This document shows, piece after piece, positions 2,620 to 56,760 of a stretch of DNA of 56,760 nt (the first letter of the stretch is position 1; every line of letters begins with the position of its first letter). The position numbers and the translations under genes were made by a program. Source of the stretch: a virus (taxonomy: Duplodnaviria; Caudoviricetes). The notes below the pieces were generated by a model, which was not told the DNA's origin, did not search any database, and saw nothing but the letters and a program-made list of their open reading frames with translations. The DNA lies in the IMG/VR virus record IMGVR_UViG_3300011116_000470, positions 1 to 56,760 of that record; one strand, 5' to 3'.

Positions 2620-2846
2620 TTCCCGCACAAGTCTATGACCCACGCAACTTCACTTGGGATGCTTGGTGCGCGCTCATGGCCGAGCTTTTTGCGTCCAACC
2701 AGCTTGGAACGGTGCCCGAAAGCCTTTGGACTACATGGGCCGATGGCATTGCTGGTATTGGCCGGTTCGCCGGTGCCCCTGACAGTCGCAACTTTGCGAC
2801 GTGGCAGGATTGGGCGTTTGCGTTCAACAACGCATTAAGGAAATAA
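2616..2846 (+). CDS. Small Trp-rich hypothetical virion-associated protein
   Basis: 76 aa, ATGA overlap with upstream gene. Confidence 0.7.
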   Translation: MIPAQVYDPRNFTWDAWCALMAELFASNQLGTVPESLWTTWADGIAGIGRFAGAPDSRNFATWQDWAFAFNNALRK

Positions 2847-2848
2847 CC

Positions 2849-5275
2849 ATGGAGAATATCGGCGGCTTTAGCGATAGTGACGGGTGGTACGCACCAACGG
2901 GGGGTGAAGCGCGTGCGGGTATGGGTTTTGCCGGTACAGGTAGCGGCCTGTCGGGTACAGGCGGCGGCGCAGCGCAAGCGGGTTTTGGTGGCGGGGGATA
3001 CGGCGCGGGCGCAGGGTATTACACAGGGGGCGGCAACGGGGGTCTTACTCCCGGTGCCTTAGAGCGATTAGCCGCTGATAACGCCGAAATAGAGCAAGCC
3101 GCTCGTGAACAAGCTGCCCGTGAAGCAGTGCGTGCGGCGGAACAGCAAGCCGCAGCACAGCAAGCCGCTCGTGAACAAGATGCTCGTGAACAAGCTGCCC
3201 GTGAAGCAGCGCGTGCAGCGGAACAGCAATCCGCTTTTAATGAAGCAAAAAATGTTGATGTTGCGGCGCTCAAGCCTAACCAAGTAGCCGCCATCTTGGC
3301 GGACACAAATTACCCACAATGGCTTAAAGACCTTGTAACCCAAATACAACCCGCAGAGGGCAGCACATTGGAGAAGCTGGGCCTACAGCCCGGCGTTACC
3401 TCTGACCAGTATTTTTCCCAAGAAACACCGGAGCAACGCGATGCGCGCATGAACTTGGTGGGTAAAGGTCTTAATGGGGTTGTAAACGCCTTCATAAGTA
3501 TGTCCCCCATGGGGGCAACGTGGAACGCCATGAATACCGCCGCGAACGTATTGACCGGCAAAGAAACAGTTGGTCAAGCGCTTACGAAGATGGGCACTGC
3601 GTATGTGGCCAGCAAACTGGGCATCCCTACGGGCGCGCTCAATTCAGCACTTGCGGGCGACCTTGGCGGCGTAGCGCAATCATTGGCTATGGGCCAATTG
3701 AATAAAACAATTTCTAACGTCACTGGTTTGCCTTCCGGTTTAGTGTCAATGGCCACGAATGCCACCGGTGTCGGCTCAAATATAAAGTCCGCCGTAAATA
3801 CGGCCATTGGAAGCACGCCTACTGGGTTCAGTACCAACAAAATCGCAAGCGCGCTTGATAGCATTTTAGGAACCGCGCCTGCAAAAACGACTACAACGGC
3901 TACTACGCCTCCAAAAATTTCCATTGACCCAAACGCGAACCCGTATAACGATGTACTTTCAGCTAACCAGCAGCTTTCGTTAGACCGCGCACTAACTGCG
4001 CCTGATACCCCAACTACCGTAGGTGGTCTTGACTCGTTAGACCGCGTAAATGTCACAGGGGCAAACACGGGCGACGGCGCTGGGGTTGGTAGTGAAACAG
4101 TTCCTATCAGGGCGACCTATGGTGCGGAAACAGAAGGCGCATTAGCGCCAGTAACAATTACGGCAAAACGTTTACCTAAAGAAGAAGAAGAACCGCCCAG
4201 TGCGCTTGAAACAGTTCCTAGCACCGCAACCTATGGTACAGAAACAGAAGGCGCATTAGCGCCAGTAAAAATTACGGCAAAACGTTTACCTAAAGAAGAA
4301 GAAATACCTACGCCAGTAATGCCTCCGAATGTTGGAACGCTTGAGCCTGTAACGGGCAGCTTGCCAGTTGCAGCTACCCCCGTGGCTACTACGCCTACGC
4401 CTACGCCTACGCCTACGCCTACGCCTACACCTACGCCAGTAACATCCACCGCCGCAACGCCAACAGGTGGCTTGCCGACAGTTTCAGACGCTACCGCTGC
4501 TGCGGGGCGCATGGCGCAACTTGGAAAAATGGGGTCTTCAGAAATGGGTTACAACCAAAACCTTAGACAACTCAATATGCCTGAATTAACGCAATTTGAG
4601 ATGCCAACCGACGAAACACTATCAAACGTTGACGTGAACAAAGCCTTGGCCGCGTTGGCGGCGTATGCGCCCAACGCCGAGCGCGATATAGTGCCCCAGT
4701 TCTTTGCCGAAGGTGGGCAACCCGATGCGCAGAATTTGTTGGATTCGTACCAGCGGGCCGACATGCAAAAAGCGCTTAAAAATTTAGGTGAAGTAGGCTC
4801 GGGTTTAACGCCTGCCAAGCCCCGAGTGCTTTCTCTTGAAAAAGTAGGTGGCCCAAACCAGCAGCAATCCTTGCGCCAAATGGGTGTAGTACCGCAGCTT
4901 GCAACTATTTTGCGGGCTCGGGGCATGCGTTTGGCCGAAGGTGGCCAGCCCGACCACACCCATCCGCACTACGATGGGACTCCGCTCTTTCGCACCGGGG
5001 GGCTGGAAAGTCTGGGCGGCAAATACGTCGAAGGCAAGGGTGACGGCACCAGCGACGACATAGCCGCGATGCTGGCCAACGGTGAGTACGTCTTCTCCGC
5101 CGATGTAGTGGCGGCGCTGGGCAACGGCTCCAACAAGGCTGGGGCCGAAAAACTAGATGAAATGGTGCAGTCGATCCGTGCTCGGGCACGCTCTGCGCCC
5201 CCCGACAAGCTCCCCCCGGATGCCAAGTCTCCACTAGAATATCTGAAATCCTCAAAGGGGAAAAAGCATGACTGA
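2849..5275 (+). CDS. Putative internal virion/ejection protein with TonB-box-like repeats and a C-terminal GxGTSDxIxAMLxNGEYV domain
   Basis: AAGGA RBS before ATG 2849; low-complexity EQAARE repeats, PT linker, FAEGG/LAEGG/FRTGG motifs; C-terminal domain resembles the end of siphophage tape-measure proteins. Confidence 0.7.
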   Translation: MENIGGFSDSDGWYAPTGGEARAGMGFAGTGSGLSGTGGGAAQAGFGGGGYGAGAGYYTGGGNGGLTPGALERLAADNAEIEQAAREQAAREAVRAAEQQAAAQQAAREQDAREQAAREAARAAEQQSAFNEAKNVDVAALKPNQVAAILADTNYPQWLKDLVTQIQPAEGSTLEKLGLQPGVTSDQYFSQETPEQRDARMNLVGKGLNGVVNAFISMSPMGATWNAMNTAANVLTGKETVGQALTKMGTAYVASKLGIPTGALNSALAGDLGGVAQSLAMGQLNKTISNVTGLPSGLVSMATNATGVGSNIKSAVNTAIGSTPTGFSTNKIASALDSILGTAPAKTTTTATTPPKISIDPNANPYNDVLSANQQLSLDRALTAPDTPTTVGGLDSLDRVNVTGANTGDGAGVGSETVPIRATYGAETEGALAPVTITAKRLPKEEEEPPSALETVPSTATYGTETEGALAPVKITAKRLPKEEEIPTPVMPPNVGTLEPVTGSLPVAATPVATTPTPTPTPTPTPTPTPVTSTAATPTGGLPTVSDATAAAGRMAQLGKMGSSEMGYNQNLRQLNMPELTQFEMPTDETLSNVDVNKALAALAAYAPNAERDIVPQFFAEGGQPDAQNLLDSYQRADMQKALKNLGEVGSGLTPAKPRVLSLEKVGGPNQQQSLRQMGVVPQLATILRARGMRLAEGGQPDHTHPHYDGTPLFRTGGLESLGGKYVEGKGDGTSDDIAAMLANGEYVFSADVVAALGNGSNKAGAEKLDEMVQSIRARARSAPPDKLPPDAKSPLEYLKSSKGKKHD
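4094..4303 (+). repeat. Tandem duplication, 114-nt period (ETVP..ATYGxETEGALAPVxITAKRLPKEEE)
   Basis: Near-identical copies starting at 4094 and 4208. Confidence 0.9.
4391..4438 (+). repeat. (ACGCCT)n hexamer repeat encoding a Thr-Pro linker
   Basis: About 8 tandem acgcct-like units. Confidence 0.9.
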
Positions 5276-14594: not shown

Positions 14595-15131
14595 TCAAAC
14601 CAAGTCTTCTACGCTCAGGTCTTCAAAGTCGTCGGTATCGGCCACGCCGCCGCCAGCAAAGCTCTCGCCGTCTTTGTAGAACTGCACGCCCATCAAAGTG
14701 GCATTGATGCGCTTGCCGTAGTTGTTGTCCTGCACCCACAATTCAATGCTGGCGTTGACGTAGCAGCCCGCATAGGGCTTGCCGTCTTGCGCCGTCAGCG
14801 GGGTCTTGTTCACGTCGATCACTAGGGGCTTGATAGAGTTGCGAGCGCTGACGTACATCATGCCCTCAAAGCCATCGTAGTTGGCCTTTAGATCGCCGCT
14901 GTGCAGGCAGGTCTTGTCGGCTGCGCGGATAGTCTTGAGCATGGCGTCGGCCTTAGCGCCCCACTTTTCTTTGGCCACGGCCTCGATGGCACTGTTGATG
15001 GTTTTAATCTGCGAATCTTTGGGGTCGATCAGGAACGCAGCAGAGAAGGCAGGTTTGCCCTCGCCGTTGACGGTCTTGGCCTCAAAGAGTTGGGGGAACG
15101 ACAAGCGCACATTGTTGAGTTTTACTTTCAT
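14595..15131 (-). CDS. DUF2815-family single-stranded DNA-binding protein
   Basis: VRLSFP, YAGCYVNASI, GVQFYKDGESF motifs, acidic C-terminal tail. Confidence 0.88.
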   Translation of the reverse strand: MKVKLNNVRLSFPQLFEAKTVNGEGKPAFSAAFLIDPKDSQIKTINSAIEAVAKEKWGAKADAMLKTIRAADKTCLHSGDLKANYDGFEGMMYVSARNSIKPLVIDVNKTPLTAQDGKPYAGCYVNASIELWVQDNNYGKRINATLMGVQFYKDGESFAGGGVADTDDFEDLSVEDLV

Positions 15132-15146
15132 GGGAATCTCCAAAGG

Positions 15147-27271: not shown

Positions 27272-28771
27272 ATGGCAACAAACACTGAGGCGCAATATGA
27301 CACAAAGCAAGAAGGGCCGTTCTACCGCGTCCATCCACGCGCTATTGCGCAAAGTGGAGCACGAACTCAAGGCATACGAGAAGAAGGTGGGGCCAATACC
27401 CAAGCTGCACTCGGATCATCACGAGGCGCAGTTTCGCAATCATCTGAGGATGCGCAGGTCTATGATCTGATACACAGCGGGCGCACGCCCGCGCACCAAG
27501 CGGCGCACGCCTACAGCCAGCGGATGTTTGGCAGGCCCTACGCGCCCATCCCCAACAGCGAGAGCTCGCTCAAGAAACAAGCCCCAATCGGGCGCGTGTT
27601 CATGTTGGCCACCGAGGGCAACCCGCAGTACAAACAAGCGGTGTACGACGCCTATAAACGCCAGATGCCCGAGCACGTCGCAGAAGCCAAGAACTACGAC
27701 GAACTGGTGGCCAAGGCCTATCAGCAACTGAACCGCGAGACCAAGCAGCAGTTTGATTCGCTGCCGGTGAACATGAGCTTTCACAAGAACGGAGAAGGCA
27801 ACTACCGCAGCAGCAAAGAGATGCTGCGCGACATCCACAACAACGGCCATTTGTACGTATTCCAAGGCGGCGAGCCGCACCTGTCCATGAACAACGTTGA
27901 CCCAAGCACTGGGCTCAACGACACCGAGATGTTTAGGGCAGTGCATGACTTCTACGGCCACGCGCTGCACGCAAACGAGTTTGGCCCCAAGGGTGAAGAG
28001 AAGGCATGGGCGGCGCACTCCGGCATGTACAGCCCGCTGGCGCAAGCGGCCATGACCACCGAGACACGCGGTCAAAACAGCGTGGTCAACTACACCCCGC
28101 TCAACGCCCACATCAAGCAGCAAGTGCGCAAGCTCGACGAGGCCGCGTATCATGCCGCCCGCAACGGCGACGCCGCGCAGGCCGAGCGGTTCATCAACCT
28201 CAAGCGGCAGGTGCTAGACGAGGGCTTTACTTACGGCCCGCAGGCGTCGATTCTGTTGCCCCCTGAGATGAACCGAGGCGACTACGAGGGCGGCGTGCCC
28301 CCGTACTTGCGCCCGCTGATCAAACCCAAAAACCCAGCCAGCGCGGAGCTAACGCACTTTAGCAACGAGCCCAACTTGACGCAGACCGACCCCAGCCGAT
28401 ACGGCACGGGCATCAAGGGCGCGGAGGCCGAGCGACTGACCAGCCCCAACGCCGTGCGCAACCGCACCTACTTTTACGCCGGACGCCCCGAGCGCGGTGA
28501 GCCCGGCTTGGGCACCCATCGCTATGCAGCGCGAGCAAGCGACCTATACGACGTGGCCAGCGACCCCGAAGGCCTGCATCGGCTGGCCATTGAGCACAAC
28601 GTTACCCCGTTTAGCGCGCCGTACAATCAGGGCGTGGCCAACCCGCAAGGGGCCTTCACGGACTTGGAGCGATTGGCCCACGAGCACGGCTACGGCGGCG
28701 TGCTGCAACGCAACACACAGATGCCGATGGCGGCAGTATTTGGCGCGCTACCGGTGCGCAAGATCACGTAA
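27272..28771 (+). CDS. Polyvalent-type protein: metallopeptidase-like domain plus ADP-ribosyltransferase-like domain
   Basis: FRAVHDFYGH...GEEKAW..H...ETRGQNS; C-terminal LTHFS...GTG...RTYFY...HGYGG. Confidence 0.5.
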   Translation: MATNTEAQYDTKQEGPFYRVHPRAIAQSGARTQGIREEGGANTQAALGSSRGAVSQSSEDAQVYDLIHSGRTPAHQAAHAYSQRMFGRPYAPIPNSESSLKKQAPIGRVFMLATEGNPQYKQAVYDAYKRQMPEHVAEAKNYDELVAKAYQQLNRETKQQFDSLPVNMSFHKNGEGNYRSSKEMLRDIHNNGHLYVFQGGEPHLSMNNVDPSTGLNDTEMFRAVHDFYGHALHANEFGPKGEEKAWAAHSGMYSPLAQAAMTTETRGQNSVVNYTPLNAHIKQQVRKLDEAAYHAARNGDAAQAERFINLKRQVLDEGFTYGPQASILLPPEMNRGDYEGGVPPYLRPLIKPKNPASAELTHFSNEPNLTQTDPSRYGTGIKGAEAERLTSPNAVRNRTYFYAGRPERGEPGLGTHRYAARASDLYDVASDPEGLHRLAIEHNVTPFSAPYNQGVANPQGAFTDLERLAHEHGYGGVLQRNTQMPMAAVFGALPVRKIT

Positions 28772-28782
28772 AGGACACGGCT

Positions 28783-30579
28783 ATGCCCACGATCAACCAG
28801 ATGCGCCAAGCGCTGATGCAACGAGCCACACGGCGCATGTCTGATGGCGGGCAACCCGACGAGGCCGACGAGAACCCAGATAGCAGGCGCGTGGCCGAGT
28901 CCAAGGCCATGCTCAATCCCAAGGTGCAGACCGTGCGCAATCCGAAGCGCATGGCCTTTCCCGGCATCTACAAAAACCCCAAACAAATTGCCGCCGAGGC
29001 CGCTGCCCGCGTGGAGCCCGAAGACCCAGCGCTCAAGCGCTTGTTCGGCGTCAGCCGTGGCGACTTGTACGAGATGGGTAAGGGCCGCAAAGGCAACCTG
29101 CCGGGCACGCTACCCGGCGCAGCGGCCAATCCAAGGGGCTCCGAAGCCGCTACCGACGTTATGGTTCCTAAAAACCGCCAGCGCTTGATAGACGTGCTGG
29201 GCGAGGCCGAGAAGTACCCTGCGCTGGTGCAGGGCATGGATCCGTGGTATATCACCGACCCGGCTTTTCAGCGCATGGTGCATTTAATCGGTTACGAAAA
29301 CGCCGTGCGCGAATACGACAAGCTCAACCACCTGATAGGCATGGCCTCGCCCGCCAGTGACGTGATGACTGAGATACCACGCGGCACTGCGGCTTATGCG
29401 CTGCACACTCAGGGGCGCTTCCCTGAGTTCGTGAAGTACGCGGGCATGCCCGAAGGCAAGCGCAAGCGCAGCTTTCCCAAGGACATCCGCAACGTGCCGG
29501 GGCATGCCTACCACAAGACCGCACAGGCTGGGCCTATGGCCAAGTATCTTGACCTTGGTGAGATGACCATGAAGACGCCCAAAGTGCCGCTGTACATCCA
29601 AGCAAGCAGCGTGCCCGAAGTAGGTTTTCAGACAGAGACCCCGGTGGGCGACGCGCACTGGAGCCGTGGCGTGGGCTTGGCCGACACCCGCAACTGGAAA
29701 ACCGTTAAGGGTAAAAAAGCTATCCCCGGCGCCAGCGTAACTAACCCTGAGATGTCCGCGCTCAAGCCATGGTGGAAAGAAATTGCCGAGCAACTGGGCC
29801 TTGAGTCTGTTCCAGCCCAAGGACGCGCATGGGGCACGTTTGCGCCGCAAACCGGTGTGGACACGCCCATCGGCGCAGGCAAGCTAGAGCTATTGGCGCG
29901 CAACATTATGTACACCGCCCACCGACTGGGCGTGTCGCCTGAAACCGCCCGCGACATGATCCTGACCGGCAAGACCTACGCAGGCCGCGCAGAAGGAGGC
30001 AGCATCCAAGGGCCATCGCTGGACGAGATGCGCGCCCACCTCGTGCTGCACAAGGCAGACGGCGGGGCCATCGACATCAAGGAAATCGGCGCGGAAGAAG
30101 CGCCCAACATGGACGTTAAAGAGTTCATGAGCCCCGGTATGGACAAGATCAGCCTGCCCATCGGTGGCGTGGACTTCCAGCCGCAGATGCCCGGCAAGCA
30201 GATGCTGCCCGGCCAGCCCCCGCAGCAGCCCGGCATGCCCGGACAGCCGGGACAGCCACCGGGCGCACCGCAAGGCGCTATGCCGCCCGGAGCACCCCCG
30301 CAGGGCGCTATGCCACCCGGCATGCCCAGCGCGCCGCCAGCCCCGCCCAAAGGCCCGCCCAGCAACATCCTAGCCATGACGCCCCAAGGCCAAGCCTTGC
30401 AGGCCATGCGGCCCAACCCTATGGCCATGCCGCGCCCACCCGCGCTGCCCATGAAGAGTATGGCCAAGGGCGGCTCAACCACACCGTCGGCGCAAGCGAT
30501 GCGCAAGGCGCTGGCCAAGCGCAGCCCTAAGCGCGGTGGATCGACCCACGACATCCAACTGACGGAGCGCATGCTGTGA
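28783..30579 (+). CDS. Polyvalent-type protein with putative HhH/DNA-glycosylase-like domain and Pro/Gln/Met-rich tail
   Basis: PWY...ASP...PKV...VGDAHWSR...IAEQLGL..VPAQGRAW pattern; five xxxGG motifs. Confidence 0.45.
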   Translation: MPTINQMRQALMQRATRRMSDGGQPDEADENPDSRRVAESKAMLNPKVQTVRNPKRMAFPGIYKNPKQIAAEAAARVEPEDPALKRLFGVSRGDLYEMGKGRKGNLPGTLPGAAANPRGSEAATDVMVPKNRQRLIDVLGEAEKYPALVQGMDPWYITDPAFQRMVHLIGYENAVREYDKLNHLIGMASPASDVMTEIPRGTAAYALHTQGRFPEFVKYAGMPEGKRKRSFPKDIRNVPGHAYHKTAQAGPMAKYLDLGEMTMKTPKVPLYIQASSVPEVGFQTETPVGDAHWSRGVGLADTRNWKTVKGKKAIPGASVTNPEMSALKPWWKEIAEQLGLESVPAQGRAWGTFAPQTGVDTPIGAGKLELLARNIMYTAHRLGVSPETARDMILTGKTYAGRAEGGSIQGPSLDEMRAHLVLHKADGGAIDIKEIGAEEAPNMDVKEFMSPGMDKISLPIGGVDFQPQMPGKQMLPGQPPQQPGMPGQPGQPPGAPQGAMPPGAPPQGAMPPGMPSAPPAPPKGPPSNILAMTPQGQALQAMRPNPMAMPRPPALPMKSMAKGGSTTPSAQAMRKALAKRSPKRGGSTHDIQLTERML

Positions 30580-33500
30580 GAGGCTTTTACTCACCCATCG
30601 ACCAACTGGCGGCGCAGCTTCCCCGCACCAAGGGAACTGGCGCTGAGTTTATGACCGAGTTGAGCAAGCGCCCCGGCTACAAGCCGCAGGAGGTGCAAGA
30701 CCGCGACTTGCAGACGCTCATGGCCCTGCCCAAGATGGAGCGGGCGCAGTTCCTTGCAGCGCTCAAGGCCAAGCCAGCCCCCAAGCTGGAAGAGACCACG
30801 CTTAACGAAAGAAGCGAAGACCCGACAAAGTATCAGGAATACACCCTACCCGGTGGCAGCAACTACCGCGAGATACTGCTGCAAATGCCGCACGACCCTA
30901 ACCGCAAGGCTGACCCGTCATCCGGCCACTGGGATCAACCCAACGTGCTGGCGCACGTCCGCGCCAAAGACCGCTTGGGCCCCAATGGCGAAAAGATTTT
31001 GCACATTGAAGAAATTCAATCCGATTGGCACCAGCAAGGCCGCGACAAGGGTTACCTATCGCCCGACATGCCTAAACAATTGCAAGCAGCCAAACTTGCG
31101 CACCAGCGTTTAAAAGAGCAGTTGGAACAGGCAAAAGCCAGTTCAGAGCACTCCGAGCGCGGGTTGAATAGTAACAAGCCGCTGTACCAAGACCCCGAGG
31201 TGCGTCAGCGCTTGGAAGCGGCCAAGGTTGAGCACAACAACAAGATCATGGACTTGATGCCGCAGGTCATGAAGGCCGAGGCAGCGCGCCAAGAGTTAGA
31301 ACAAAAAGCAAAGACCGGCGTGCCCGATGCCCCGTTCAAAAAGAACTGGCACGAGTTGGCGCTCAAGAAGATGATCCACCACGCAGCCGAAAAGGGCTAC
31401 GACGCCATTGCCATCACACCGGGGACGGAGCAAGCCAAGCGATATGACCTGAGCAAACAGGTAGGTCGCATCACACACATGACGCATCACGATGATCCTG
31501 ATAGCGGCATTTTGTTCGCTTTTGATCCATCGGGTCGCCAGATAGTAGAAAAGCACAACGTGCCCCATTCCCAACTGCCTGAGTACATTGGTAAAGAAGG
31601 GGCGCAAAAACTACTAGGACAAAAGCCCGATAAGCATGGCTACCGTGAGTTAAGCGGCCAAAACCTTGAGGTTGGTGGCGAGGGCATGAAGGGCTTCTAC
31701 GACAAAATGGTGCCCAGCTTCTTGAACCAGTTTGGTAAGAAGTACGGCGCGCAGGTTGGCACGATGCCATTGGAGTTCAATAAATGGGAGCTTGAAGGGC
31801 AGATGCCAAAACTCGCTGAAAAGCAAGCAACACTGCACCACTTTCCCATCACCCCAGAGATGCGCGAGGACGTGACCAAGAACGGCGTGCCGCTGTACGC
31901 AGAGGGCGGCAGCGTGCCGCATCTGGCCATCGGCGGCCAAGGCCCAAAAAACTGGATCAAAGGTTCGGTGGAGCAGGTGATTGAGCCGTTGAAGTCCACC
32001 GTTGGATTCATGACCCCAGACCGAGTTGCCGAACAACAGCGTTCGATTGATGCGGCACGGCGAATCCTTGGCGCTGAAGCTCCCCGCGCAACCCTTGAGC
32101 AGATGGAGCGGGAAATACAGCAGTCACATCGTGTCGGTGCCATCAACCAATGGATTGAGCGCAACCTTGGGAACTACATTAAGAAGCAGATGGCGACGCA
32201 TGACGACCCCATCCGCAAGTTGGCAGAACAAGGCATCGTTCACATGCCACCTGAGCAGATGGGCTACGGTTCAACACAGGCCGAAGGTGTACGCAAAGTA
32301 CATGGCGCACCACGCCTTGGTCAGTCACCTGAAGCTCAGGCATGGGAAGATGCGACTGATGTGTCGATGTATCCGCATACCATCGGCGAAGTTAGAAATT
32401 TTGCCAGTCATGTGCAAGAGCCTTGGATGGATAAGGTGGGGCCAGAGACCAAAGTCTGGACTGCTTTGGACAACATGCACGCCCGCTACTTGGGCTTTGA
32501 CCACTTGGTGGACATCCTCAAGCAAGACTTGGCTGAAGGCCGCATCCGTCCTGAACAAATGAGCAAGGTCAGCATTGAGCATGCAGTACGCCGAGCACAC
32601 GAGTACGATCAGGAGCGCAAGAAGGCAATGGCCGAGACGGCGCTCAAGGCCACTGAGGGCATGCCAGTCCACAAGGAATATCCTGAAGGGTACAAGTGGA
32701 TTGAGTTGACCTTGCCAGAAAAAGGCGAGCATTTACTCACTGAACTGGACAAAAAAATCATTGCTGATCGCAAAGACAACCCAGTATCGCCAGAGGTAAT
32801 GGATAAAACACTTGATCAAAGAGCGCATGCAAAACTGGAAGAGGCTCTGAAGTATGAGGGCGACACCATGGGTCACTGCGTTGGCGGGTATACGCCTGAT
32901 GTGGCTTTAGGCAAGTCACGCATCTTTAGTTTGCGTGATGCCAAAGGTGAGCCTCATGTGACGATTGAGGTTAAGCCAAAAAGTATTGAAGAAGGAATCA
33001 GAAAACTACCTGATGCAGAGCGCCAAGCTTTGGCTCAGGAAGTTAAAGACCAACATTTTGGTGGAGTAATGCCGGGCGTAAGCAGTGAAGACAAATACTT
33101 CAATCTAATTGACCAACATTACGTTGCCAAGCATGGCATGCCTGCGCCACGCATCCATCAAATCAAAGGCAAAGGCAACGCCAAGCCCAAGAAGGACTAC
33201 ATCCCTTATGTGCAGGACTTTGTAAAGTCAGGCAACTGGTCGGACGTAGGCGACGCAAAAAATGCTGGCCTGCGTAAATACGGAGACGTGTTCAACGTCA
33301 ACGAGCAACGGCAAATAGAGAAAACCGGCGAGCAGGTGCCCGAGCATGAATGGTTGACGGGAGAGGACATTCAACGCTTGCACAACGCCATCGTTCCGCC
33401 GGGCAAGCGCTTGAAATACGATGCCAATGGGAACATCATAGGCAACGAAGGCGGATACGCCAAGGGCGGCAGCATCAAGCCCATCGGCTACACTAAAGAG

Positions 33501-33581
33501 AAAGTTACAGTTTCACCAAACTTAGATGCCATGCGGTACGAGCTTATGAGCGTGAAACACTTTGCAAAGAAGGTTAAATAA
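30576..33581 (+). CDS. Large polyvalent protein with EEIQSDW domain and PcfJ-like domain
   Basis: YTLPGGSNYREIL...LAHVR...IEEIQSDWHQ...AAEKGYD; EGDTMGHCVGGY...IFSLRD...HVTIEV...QIKGKGN. Confidence 0.65.
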   Translation: MRGFYSPIDQLAAQLPRTKGTGAEFMTELSKRPGYKPQEVQDRDLQTLMALPKMERAQFLAALKAKPAPKLEETTLNERSEDPTKYQEYTLPGGSNYREILLQMPHDPNRKADPSSGHWDQPNVLAHVRAKDRLGPNGEKILHIEEIQSDWHQQGRDKGYLSPDMPKQLQAAKLAHQRLKEQLEQAKASSEHSERGLNSNKPLYQDPEVRQRLEAAKVEHNNKIMDLMPQVMKAEAARQELEQKAKTGVPDAPFKKNWHELALKKMIHHAAEKGYDAIAITPGTEQAKRYDLSKQVGRITHMTHHDDPDSGILFAFDPSGRQIVEKHNVPHSQLPEYIGKEGAQKLLGQKPDKHGYRELSGQNLEVGGEGMKGFYDKMVPSFLNQFGKKYGAQVGTMPLEFNKWELEGQMPKLAEKQATLHHFPITPEMREDVTKNGVPLYAEGGSVPHLAIGGQGPKNWIKGSVEQVIEPLKSTVGFMTPDRVAEQQRSIDAARRILGAEAPRATLEQMEREIQQSHRVGAINQWIERNLGNYIKKQMATHDDPIRKLAEQGIVHMPPEQMGYGSTQAEGVRKVHGAPRLGQSPEAQAWEDATDVSMYPHTIGEVRNFASHVQEPWMDKVGPETKVWTALDNMHARYLGFDHLVDILKQDLAEGRIRPEQMSKVSIEHAVRRAHEYDQERKKAMAETALKATEGMPVHKEYPEGYKWIELTLPEKGEHLLTELDKKIIADRKDNPVSPEVMDKTLDQRAHAKLEEALKYEGDTMGHCVGGYTPDVALGKSRIFSLRDAKGEPHVTIEVKPKSIEEGIRKLPDAERQALAQEVKDQHFGGVMPGVSSEDKYFNLIDQHYVAKHGMPAPRIHQIKGKGNAKPKKDYIPYVQDFVKSGNWSDVGDAKNAGLRKYGDVFNVNEQRQIEKTGEQVPEHEWLTGEDIQRLHNAIVPPGKRLKYDANGNIIGNEGGYAKGGSIKPIGYTKEKVTVSPNLDAMRYELMSVKHFAKKVK

Positions 33582-42862: not shown

Positions 42863-43933
42863 ATGTCCTACTCGGGTACTGTTGGCCAGACCGTTATCAC
42901 GGTTCAAAAGCTCATTGACCATGGGGCGCGGCGTGCTGGGAAATTGGCCGAGGAATTGACGGTTGAACAGGTGCAAGCGTCCAAAGAGTCGCTGTTTTAC
43001 ATCCTGAGCAATTTGATCAACCAAGGCATCCAGTATTTCGCCATCAAAAAGACCGTAATTGGCCTCAATCCTGACCAATACCAGTATTCCCTGCCCGTTG
43101 GTGGCAATGACGTGCTAAACGCGCTCTATCGCACGTTAAATCGCCCGACCCCGAACATCGCCAACGGCTACTCTGCCTCGTCGGGCAATGCCGACCTCGC
43201 TTTTGACGGCAACACTGCGACGGCGGATACACAAACCGCGCCCAATGGCTACATCGCCGTGAATTACGGCACCAACAATTCAATTTACGCCGGGTCAATC
43301 GGTATCCTGCCCGCCACCTCGGGCTCATTCCACATTTTGCTGGAATGGTCGAACGATGGTTCCACATGGAACACTTTGTACGACACAGGCGTTACCACAT
43401 GGGTTAGCGGCCAATGGCACTGGTACGACATTGATCCGGGCGTGACGGCGCAGTATTACCGCATGCGCGAAACTGGCGGCGGCACTTTGAGCGTGGCGGA
43501 GTTCTTTGTGGGCAACAACTCCACCGAGATCACCATGTCCCGGCTCAACCGCGACGACTACACCAACTTGCCCAACAAGAACTTTACGGCCAACCAGCCG
43601 TTTCAGTTCTGGCTCAACCGCACGATCCCGCAGGCCACCATTACGGTTTGGCCAACGCCTTCTAGCCCGTTTGTGCAGATGACGGTGTGGTACTCAGCCT
43701 ACGTGGAAGATGTGGGCGCTTTGAGCGGCCAGTTGGCCATCCCTGACCGCTGGCTTATGGCCATCCAAAACATGCTGGGCCACCAGATGGCGCAGGAACT
43801 GCCCGGCGTGGACTTGGCGCGCATCCAGTACCTTGAGGGCCAAGCCCAGAAGTATTTCATGATGGCCGAGCAAGAAGAGCGCGACAAGTCGCCCATCATG
43901 CTCAGCCCTAATATTTCGGTCTATTCGAGGTAG
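42863..43933 (+). CDS. Head-tail adaptor-like protein with inserted discoidin-like domain
   Basis: LIDHGARRAG...LNRDDYTNLPNK...VWPTP; central AFDGN...LEWSNDG.TW...YYRM insert. Confidence 0.6.
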   Translation: MSYSGTVGQTVITVQKLIDHGARRAGKLAEELTVEQVQASKESLFYILSNLINQGIQYFAIKKTVIGLNPDQYQYSLPVGGNDVLNALYRTLNRPTPNIANGYSASSGNADLAFDGNTATADTQTAPNGYIAVNYGTNNSIYAGSIGILPATSGSFHILLEWSNDGSTWNTLYDTGVTTWVSGQWHWYDIDPGVTAQYYRMRETGGGTLSVAEFFVGNNSTEITMSRLNRDDYTNLPNKNFTANQPFQFWLNRTIPQATITVWPTPSSPFVQMTVWYSAYVEDVGALSGQLAIPDRWLMAIQNMLGHQMAQELPGVDLARIQYLEGQAQKYFMMAEQEERDKSPIMLSPNISVYSR

Positions 43934-56214: not shown

Positions 56215-56760
56215 ATGACCACTTACACGAACCCGTTCACCGGCCAGACTATTAGCCCCTCGTCGGTAAGCTACGAGTCCATCACGCTATCGGGCAACCT
56301 GACGCTTGAATGGCCGATAAACGGCAACGACGCCACTCCGGTCAGCAGCATCCTTGATGTGACGGCCACCGCGCCGGGTTTCAACTTGGCGCTGCCGCCC
56401 GCAACGCAGGTATCGACTGGCCAGACTGTCATCGTGCGCAACATCGGCCTCTTGGCCAACACGTTCACGGTGACGGACTACACGGGCGCTACCATCATCT
56501 TGGTGTCCTCTGGCGTTGCTCAGTTCATCTTCTTGACCGACAACAGCACGGAAGGCGGCACTTGGTCGTCCGTGGTGCTGGGCGCGGGCACATCATCGGC
56601 CAACGCCGCAGCGCTTGCTGGGTACGGCCTGACCCCCATCGGGCTCACCCTAAACCAAGCCTACACCACGGCTACTTATTACGGTAACGCCACGCTGCCT
56701 TCTACAGTGCGTGCGCAGCTTGTGATCTGGGGCAGCGGCGTGGGCGCGTTGTCGCTACCA
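56215..56760 (+). CDS. 5' part of structural protein continuing at 1-856
   Basis: Open from ATG 56215 (MTTYTNPFTGQ) to contig end, AGGA RBS. Confidence 0.8.
   Translation, partial: MTTYTNPFTGQTISPSSVSYESITLSGNLTLEWPINGNDATPVSSILDVTATAPGFNLALPPATQVSTGQTVIVRNIGLLANTFTVTDYTGATIILVSSGVAQFIFLTDNSTEGGTWSSVVLGAGTSSANAAALAGYGLTPIGLTLNQAYTTATYYGNATLPSTVRAQLVIWGSGVGALSLP
56634..56760. repeat. Terminal direct repeat identical to 1-127
   Basis: Exact match by inspection. Confidence 0.95.

Follow-up and report, generated by a model that had tools for sequence, protein, structure and literature searches.

TonB-box-like motifs in a large putative virion protein of a tailed phage

We have analysed a stretch of viral DNA of 56,760 bp (Duplodnaviria; Caudoviricetes), which holds the complete IMG/VR virus record IMGVR_UViG_3300011116_000470 and is called the window in this study. 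The window carries genes for terminase, portal, head, endolysin, tail-fibre, DNA polymerase A, an SNF2 helicase and a Gp2.5-like single-stranded DNA-binding protein (SSB). The subject of this study is a late gene for a putative virion protein of 808 amino acids (aa), whose central region contains three short motifs resembling the TonB box. This box is found in TonB-dependent outer-membrane transporters such as BtuB, FhuA and FepA, and group B colicins, pesticin and TonB-dependent pyocins carry it in an unstructured translocation domain. A sequence-only reading of the window had drawn attention to the three motifs and had proposed that they lie in a disordered region of a putative ejection protein and may bind TonB of the host, either to power periplasm crossing or DNA entry or to sequester TonB against other phages. 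We found that the likeness of the motifs to TonB boxes is real and statistically clear at the level of the amino acid sequence, and we discuss, more tentatively, what the protein may do with them.

Results

Gene and protein architecture

The gene lies in an open frame spanning positions 2801-5275 of the plus strand (Table 1). Translation probably begins with the ATG at 2849, which has AAGGA 8 nt upstream and directly follows the stop of a 76-aa open reading frame (ORF) at 2616-2846. An AlphaFold2 model of the protein was calculated from a 29-row alignment and has a mean predicted local distance difference test (pLDDT) score of 47.6. The helix that follows the Gly-rich N-terminal stretch is partly coded by 15-nt repeats (Tandem Repeats Finder, TRF, period-15 arrays at 3095-3124 and 3161-3205), and its AAREQAAREA-type repeats (3050-3250) are modelled very confidently as one helix. 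In and around the centre, pLDDT is below 50 at residues 291-417, 446-470 and 472-598. The exception in this low-confidence coil is a hairpin with strands at residues 420-424 and 435-439, where the block pLDDT is 67-69. The C-terminal part is modelled with a few helices, and the alignment columns from about residue 700 are almost invariant. Within this part, the element at residues 724-760 matches phrog_5448 in 23 of the 29 aligned members and phrog_6090 in 12 of them, both families being annotated as 'tail length tape measure protein'.

Table 1. Features of the 808-aa protein gene and of its neighbours, in window positions
Feature	Start	End	Strand	Evidence or remark
Virion structural protein gene, upstream	856	2619	+	phrog_3287, E 5e-30; 47% identical to GB2A gp067c, E 1e-104
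Putative virion protein gene, 808 aa, stop included	2849	5275	+	open frame, ATG + AAGGA, 120 homologues
Gly-rich N-terminal stretch, residues 1-67	2849	3049	+	pLDDT 35-49, without secondary structure
Long Ala/Gln/Arg/Glu-rich helix, residues 68-134	3050	3250	+	block pLDDT up to 96
Gly/Ala-rich helical region, residues 143-340	3275	3868	+	pLDDT about 45-80; conserved in part of the family
Central low-complexity region with the motifs, residues 341-560	3869	4528	+	mostly pLDDT <50; hypervariable in homologues
TonB-box-like site 1, LDRVNVTGANT, residues 397-407	4037	4069	+	17.0 bits, rank 1
114-nt tandem duplication with sites 2 and 3	4093	4303	+	TRF 1.9 copies, 92% matches, score 373
TonB-box-like site 2, LAPVTITAKRL, residues 432-442	4142	4174	+	11.3 bits, rank 3
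TonB-box-like site 3, LAPVKITAKRL, residues 470-480	4256	4288	+	12.3 bits, rank 2
Pro-Thr linker, CTACGC hexamer array	4389	4437	+	TRF period 6, 8.2 copies; translates TPTPTP
Conserved C-terminal part, residues 540-808	4466	5272	+	covered by 111-118 of 120 homologues; 801-808 by 37
Tape-measure-like element, residues 724-760	5018	5128	+	phrog_6090, E 2.4e-4; also phrog_5448
Three large downstream genes (475, 563, 447 aa), ending the late block	5268	9747	+	ORFs

The three motifs

Translation of the gene gives all three peptides at the positions that the sequence-only reading had assigned to them. Their cores are LDRVNVTG (site 1, residues 397-404, positions 4037-4060), LAPVTITAKR (site 2, residues 432-441, positions 4142-4171) and LAPVKITAKR (site 3, residues 470-479, positions 4256-4285). 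The claim that two of the motifs derive from a 114-nt duplication agrees with the TRF array of period 114, which carries sites 2 and 3; when the full 114-nt units are aligned, 96 of the 114 bases are identical between the copies. The Pro-Thr linker reported downstream of the motifs was found as the period-6 CTACGC array coding for a TPTPTP run. In these respects the earlier observation is confirmed. The description of the region as disordered holds in part: the coil, including the surroundings of sites 1 and 3, is mostly modelled with pLDDT below 50, low confidence alone being no proof of disorder, whereas site 2 is modelled within the hairpin.

Likeness to the TonB boxes of transporters

The motifs were compared with real TonB boxes by means of a matrix learned de novo with a Gibbs sampler, one site per sequence, from 84 segments preceding the Plug domain in transporters from 32 genomes of a single order. 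The phage motif was not used in learning. The order is that of a Betaproteobacteria metagenome-assembled genome (G001), the sole genome with a member of the protein family on a contig. Three sequences of G001 with odd or weak Plug matches (L059, L062 and L063) were not used for the transporter set, and two sequences from genome G027 (L112 and L083) were excluded both from this set and from the TonB alignment described below. The consensus obtained, L-[PED]-[ET]-[VI]-[VE]-V-T-[AG]-[ST]-R, is located mostly 14-20 residues before the Plug match and is the TonB box; LAPVEVTAPAA, LPPVYVTAPTP, LDPVVVTATRT and LERVVITAEKR are individual examples from the transporters.

When the 808-aa protein was scanned with the transporter matrix, the three sites at residues 397, 470 and 432 took the first three ranks with 17.0, 12.3 and 11.3 bits, and the next best position reached 7.9 bits. 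The 84 real boxes have a median of 15.8 bits and an interquartile range of 11.8-19.1 bits. Among the other window ORFs of at least 150 aa, a single position out of 22,215 scored at least 10 bits, and none of 5000 shuffles of the 808-aa protein produced two or more sites of at least 11.3 bits. At the rate of matches of at least 11 bits in non-family ORFs of the window and 44 related loci (23 in 146,816 positions), a stretch of 808 residues would contain two or more independent hits with a probability of about 0.007. Accordingly, the TonB-box pattern proposed by the sequence-only reading stands up to profile scoring. The comparison was also made in the reverse direction, with a matrix built from the phage repeats of 10 proteins. 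Its best match fell on the TonB box in 58 of the 84 transporter segments, and a score of at least 6 bits was reached in 13 of the 84 segments versus none of 2000 control windows. The 120-residue motif region has no NCBIfam match at E <= 10, so that the curated transporter models miss these motifs.

Conservation among homologues

We found 120 homologues at E <= 0.001 in a large protein collection, nearly all of them metagenomic. The strict motif pattern is present in 10 of the 121 proteins, and a small hidden Markov model picks up looser copies as well, such as LPPVTVTGS, LDTVTVTGT and LDRVTVSGT. With the transporter matrix, sites of at least 11 bits occur in 17 of the 120 homologues, compared with a mean of 2.98 and a maximum of 8 in shuffled sets. 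The largest numbers of such sites occur in the homologues P0022 (10) and P0020 (8), and an equivalent of site 1 is also present in P0002. A quick maximum-likelihood tree was calculated from the C-terminal 260 residues. Of its 18 box-bearing rows, the window protein counted, 14 fall into one clade of 29 rows (approximate likelihood ratio test SH-aLRT, 91), and none of 500 label shuffles was as clustered.

Within this clade the core of the motif is retained while the surrounding repeat unit is wholly different. The setting is acidic and Pro-rich in the window protein, consists of GNNxITDS repeats in P0020 and of Cys-rich modules in P0016, and the motif adjoins RTX repeats in P0010, P0012 and P0018. 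The occurrence of the same core in such unlike surroundings fits a self-contained short motif. In addition, P0095 carries GALAPVTVTAKRPP and LDPVYVTAKRPP next to each other at residues 539-566, in a wording close to that of the window protein. The C-terminal end of P0095 falls outside the clade that holds most of the boxes, on a long branch, and a near-identical wording despite a distant C-terminal end suggests that the motif module has moved from one lineage to another. The sequence-only reading had made its proposal depend on conservation in homologues, and the motif is indeed kept in one of their clades, in varying numbers of copies.

The centre of the protein is hypervariable among the homologues. 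Of the 29 members of the alignment used for modelling, 5 have RTX nonapeptides, 5-6 Cys-rich CBM14/TNFR-like units and 2 ALTTAQ repeats, and the centres of others are plain Ser/Thr/Gly/Pro-rich sequence. Alternative modules were seen in P0010, P0013, P0016, P0018, P0005 and P0030, with Cys-rich units directly after LDTVTVTG. The RTX, Cys-rich and ALTTAQ modules may share the theme that all of them fold or act outside the cytoplasm.

Genomic context and identity of the protein

The isolates with a homologue are only the Caulobacter phages GB2A, RW, RLK and KcrB, which together with one uncultured record make up 5 records. The GB2A genes are arranged as tail fibre, virion structural protein, 78-aa ORF, homologue, two hypothetical genes and 'lytic tail protein', followed by helicase and polymerase on the other strand, and the order in the window is the same. 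In GenBank, the GB2A homologue is labelled 'tail length tape measure protein'. The three large genes downstream in the window occupy the same slots as GB2A gp064c-gp062c. They have no Pfam, PHROG or NCBIfam matches, and BLASTP found no similarity between two of their proteins and the positional GB2A counterparts. According to PMC11053796, RW is a distant relative of the BPP-1 genus Rauchvirus, and the original description of RW is cited there under a title containing 'podovirus'.

The homologue of GB2A, gp065c (P0122; locus L066, 7510-9252), contains PVDEIVVTPSQ, TVDPVVVNPP and PVDELVIKPP in a Pro/Thr-rich linker, and a single site in it, VDEIVVTPSQP, scores well (10.9 bits). In 20 transporters of the alphaproteobacterial Novosphingobium plasmid pNL2, the boxes read [LI]-E-E-I-[IV]-V-T-A-Q-K-R. 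The resemblance of VDEIVVTPSQP to these boxes is suggestive; since they come from another genus and no second site of GB2A scores well, we have not counted it as evidence.

Considering the position of the 808-aa protein in a virion module, its synteny with GB2A and its tape-measure-like element, the term 'putative ejection protein' used in the sequence-only reading is reasonable. On the one hand, the protein may fairly be read as a probable large component of the virion in a relative of the RW/GB2A group, itself probably a short-tailed phage, and its release into the envelope of the infected cell is likewise probable. On the other hand, the ejection part of the term finds no homologue to lean on: no homology to characterised ejection proteins was detected in Pfam, PHROGs, NCBIfam or PDB sequences, and a profile of the 29-member family gave 0 matches to PDB sequences at E <= 1. 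The NCBIfam tape-measure models do not match the 808-aa protein at E <= 10. None of the 29 window ORFs scanned against PHROGs belongs to a tail tube, sheath or chaperone family; one weak match to 'major tail protein' (E 1.7e-4) was obtained for the ORF at 42863-43933. Two further candidate matches were rejected. A Pfam match to PLRV_ORF5 is spurious and lies on the Pro-Thr run, and a crAss cargo protein domain received a language-model score of 0.83, under the 0.9 line, and was not confirmed by a Pfam scan of the 29 members.

With respect to the host, a scan of genome contigs found a family member on only one contig, of 1590 bp, in the Betaproteobacteria genome G001. The Gp2.5-like SSB gene (14679-15133) shows 77-78% DNA identity to those of the Bordetella phages BPP-1, BMP-1, BIP-1 and vB_BbrP_003, and no other match was obtained when the first 20 kb were compared with phage records by megablast. 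The contig and the SSB match are weak pointers to a betaproteobacterial host.

Elsewhere in the window, positions 1-127 and 56634-56760 are identical to each other. The ORFs at 56215-56760 and 2-856 form a single gene, because a tail-fibre-like gene crosses the ends of the record; its second part matches phrog_12796/38625. Three further large genes lie between terminase and portal (27272-33581), and the one at 30576-33581 has an endolysin-family match in PHROGs (E 9.5e-15).

Co-folding with TonB

The genome G001 carries a tonB-exbB-exbD cluster. Its TonB C-terminal domain (residues 17-110) was aligned with those of 17 others from the same order (18 rows; L093, L072 and L075 left out) and co-folded with phage residues 390-445, which contain sites 1 and 2. 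The score was 0.35 (runs 0.35, 0.36 and 0.32) versus 0.00 for the best of three controls; no contacts were listed. The runs share at least 45% of contacts, the partner pLDDT is 46-47, and with an unrelated protein in place of TonB the score was 0.00. The calibration set of the method has 80 solved complexes, of which 58 passed the mark, and 110 mismatched pairs, of which 2 did so; passes with a score of at most 0.60 comprise only 7 of the 80 solved complexes together with both passing mismatches. Structures of TonB with the TonB boxes of transporters have been solved, so that the pass may reflect likeness only. Binding of the motif to the TonB C-terminal domain, as proposed by the sequence-only reading, is thus weakly suggested by a score that separates from the controls and falls in an unreliable band, with a stand-in TonB.

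Discussion

Based on these results, we put forward, tentatively and with slightly less than even confidence, that the virion protein mimics a TonB box and docks to the TonB motor. In the same tentative sense, the motif L-x-x-V-x-[VI]-T-[GA]-(x-[RK]) may imitate the TonB box of the TonB-dependent outer-membrane transporters of the host. We infer ejection, periplasmic exposure, TonB binding and an effect on entry as follows. The stretch, predicted to be mostly disordered, would reach the periplasm, where the motif would add as a beta strand to the TonB C-terminal domain, like the TonB boxes of transporters and of group B colicins and pyocins. The ejected protein would thereby be coupled to the TonB-ExbB-ExbD motor, which is driven by the proton-motive force. 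Several boxes in series would allow repeated capture, pulling or holding the protein, and perhaps the cargo that follows it, across the envelope.

Several observations weigh against docking to TonB. The transporter matrix also matches phage ORFs outside the family, with the 23 matches of at least 11 bits given above. These 23 matches are largely GQTVTVTGS-type strands of tail-fibre-like repeats, presumably structural. The motif is missing at the 11-bit threshold from 103 of the 120 homologues, so that it is not needed for the core function of the family and is an accessory of one clade. Site 2 is modelled as the second strand of a hairpin, paired with residues 420-424 (pLDDT ~68), and the region of P0022 that holds 14 repeats in 480 residues is modelled as continuous all-beta structure (mean pLDDT 57.7; predicted template modelling score, pTM, 0.58). 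The co-fold pass lies in a band rated 'more often wrong than right' unless the complex is likely beforehand, and it was obtained with a TonB from G001 as a stand-in. Finally, known TonB-box proteins have the box near the N-terminus, whereas here it is internal (residues 397-480 of 808).

The GQTVTVTGS-type strands deserve a remark of their own. They occur, with 11-16 bits, in the large tail-fibre-like ORFs upstream of the family gene in L003, L030, L031, L033 and L036. They are probably structural and call for caution in motif scans. Many related loci also contain a conserved L[ST]GV[TA]ITG site.

In the main rival, which we consider rather unlikely, the motif would simply supply the conserved strand to a beta repeat with a structural role, in a hairpin or in a solenoid-like rod or spacer; TonB would play no part, and the likeness to TonB boxes would reflect shared beta-strand chemistry. 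In a variant covered by the same estimate, the repeat would fold only after ejection and so rectify movement. Beyond the pairing of residues 435-439 with 420-424, the all-beta model of P0022 and the tail-fibre-like matches, this explanation gains from the RTX and Cys-rich modules that occupy the same region in other family members. A fold search with the P0022 repeat model gave no PDB match at E <= 0.001; its nearest neighbours, none of them significant (best E 0.35), are solenoids, namely leucine-rich repeats, curli CsgA, RsaA and beta-helices. However, the P0022 model comes from a single sequence, and the mean pLDDT of the five models ranges over 36-58. The window protein itself has just three copies, unevenly spaced in acidic, Pro-rich low-complexity sequence with pLDDT below 50, and the flanks of site 1 are wholly unlike those of sites 2 and 3. 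Moreover, the Leu at -3 and the Arg/Lys at +6, which are specific to transporters, are kept in addition to alternating hydrophobic residues, and the core persists among homologues through changed repeat context. The structural and TonB-box readings can be compatible, in that a box could stay masked until the chain is stretched.

We regard it as improbable that strand addition joins the motif to some protein other than TonB; this partner could be a periplasmic or outer-membrane protein of the host, or the portal, the tail channel or a neighbouring virion protein of the phage. A docking peptide would be conserved, repeated and placed in a flexible region, as this motif is or is predicted to be, the co-fold with TonB is weak, and three large genes of unknown family lie directly downstream. 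Against this, the detailed match is specific to TonB boxes in both directions, no result points to another partner, and the co-fold with an unrelated protein scored 0.00.

Decidedly improbable is the idea that TonB is bound in order to be blocked, so that its titration by ejected or newly made protein would shut receptors to rival phages and bacteriocins or starve TonB-dependent uptake. This idea shares the evidence for TonB binding, and the up to 10 copies in P0022 would raise the capacity. However, the gene is in the late virion block, away from the early genes where takeover functions usually sit, and only a few molecules of an ejected protein would be delivered per virion. Pulling and titration are not separated by these results. 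It is very improbable that the motifs have no function and arose as a side effect when repeats expanded in a rapidly evolving low-complexity linker: the centre is hypervariable and rich in tandem repeats, and most homologues do without the motif, but the core outlasts changes in its flanks and repeat units, the box-bearing rows cluster in one clade as in none of the label shuffles, the motif recurs almost letter for letter in the distant P0095, and 26 regular-expression matches were observed versus 0.59 in shuffles.

If the motif does act on TonB, it would do so in a protein unlike the known TonB clients. The motifs share with transporter TonB boxes the extended pattern L-x-x-V-x-V-T-[AG]-x-R, scores in the real range and a location in a segment that is, for the phage protein, predicted to be flexible. 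However, their carrier is a phage virion protein instead of a 22-strand barrel with a plug, and no match to the Plug domain was found in the phage genome. Where a transporter has one box, the phage protein has three and its relatives up to 10, and the position is internal instead of near the mature N-terminus. The nearest functional parallel, provided that the TonB reading is right, would be the translocation domain of group B colicins and pyocins, which likewise belongs to an incoming, envelope-crossing protein that brings along a TonB box within an unstructured segment; pyocin S5 (10.1101/856047) is an example. Colicins and pyocins differ in being soluble toxins with a single N-terminal box that are threaded through a transporter, whereas here a virion component has several internal boxes, and Pfam and PDB searches of the 808-aa protein found no bacteriocin domains. 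As judged by its amino acid sequence, the protein stands outside the transporter and bacteriocin families and shares the motif alone with them. FusB offers a related precedent, since this homologue of TonB is reported to act directly on a protein substrate.

Among phage proteins, the ejection proteins of short-tailed phages (T7 gp14-16, P22 gp7/gp16/gp20 and N4; review, PMC8954989) are similar in being coded by a large gene of the late virion block and, as far as the model of the 808-aa protein goes, in being extended and largely unfolded, with helical and Gly-rich parts. The 808-aa protein shows no sequence or profile similarity to those of T7, P22 and N4, and a TonB box on the latter is not reported in the literature searched. 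Residues 724-760 match tail tape measure families (PHROGs 6090, 5448, 25241, 23013 and 3547); unlike in tape measure proteins, however, the match covers just ~37 residues with E values of 1e-3 to 1e-5, and no tube, sheath or chaperone gene was recognised. For T1 and phi80, infection is likewise tied to the TonB system, and in the available portion of PMC11658791 the need for TonB is ascribed to the energised receptor FhuA. In our case the box would be on the phage protein itself, and none is mentioned for T1 or phi80 in that portion. Similarly, in the excerpts of papers on T5, the TonB box is mentioned together with the phage with reference to the box of FhuA itself. In the main texts of papers outside subscription journals, our full-text searches found no phage virion protein described as bearing a TonB box.

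How proteins and then DNA cross the periplasm, and from what source the energy comes, is open for most groups of short-tailed phages. If the boxes described here work, the phage would tap the proton-motive force of the host directly through TonB and not only through an energised receptor. More broadly, it is possible, though doubtful, that phages bear their own TonB boxes on ejected proteins, which the motor pulls or anchors, hand over hand where the boxes are in tandem, as a source of energy for envelope crossing that would resemble the import of bacteriocins and may recur across unrelated tail types. The variable copy number (1 to 10) together with the alternative modules hints, by our own reckoning, at devices that act only outside the cytoplasm. 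Culturable relatives bring the question within direct reach of experiment, and the homologue of the Caulobacter phages RW/GB2A has the VDEIVVT site. If TonB docking is true, these proteins would form a new class of TonB client, and the motif would be a sequence marker that predicts TonB dependence, and hence routes to resistance, from phage genomes.

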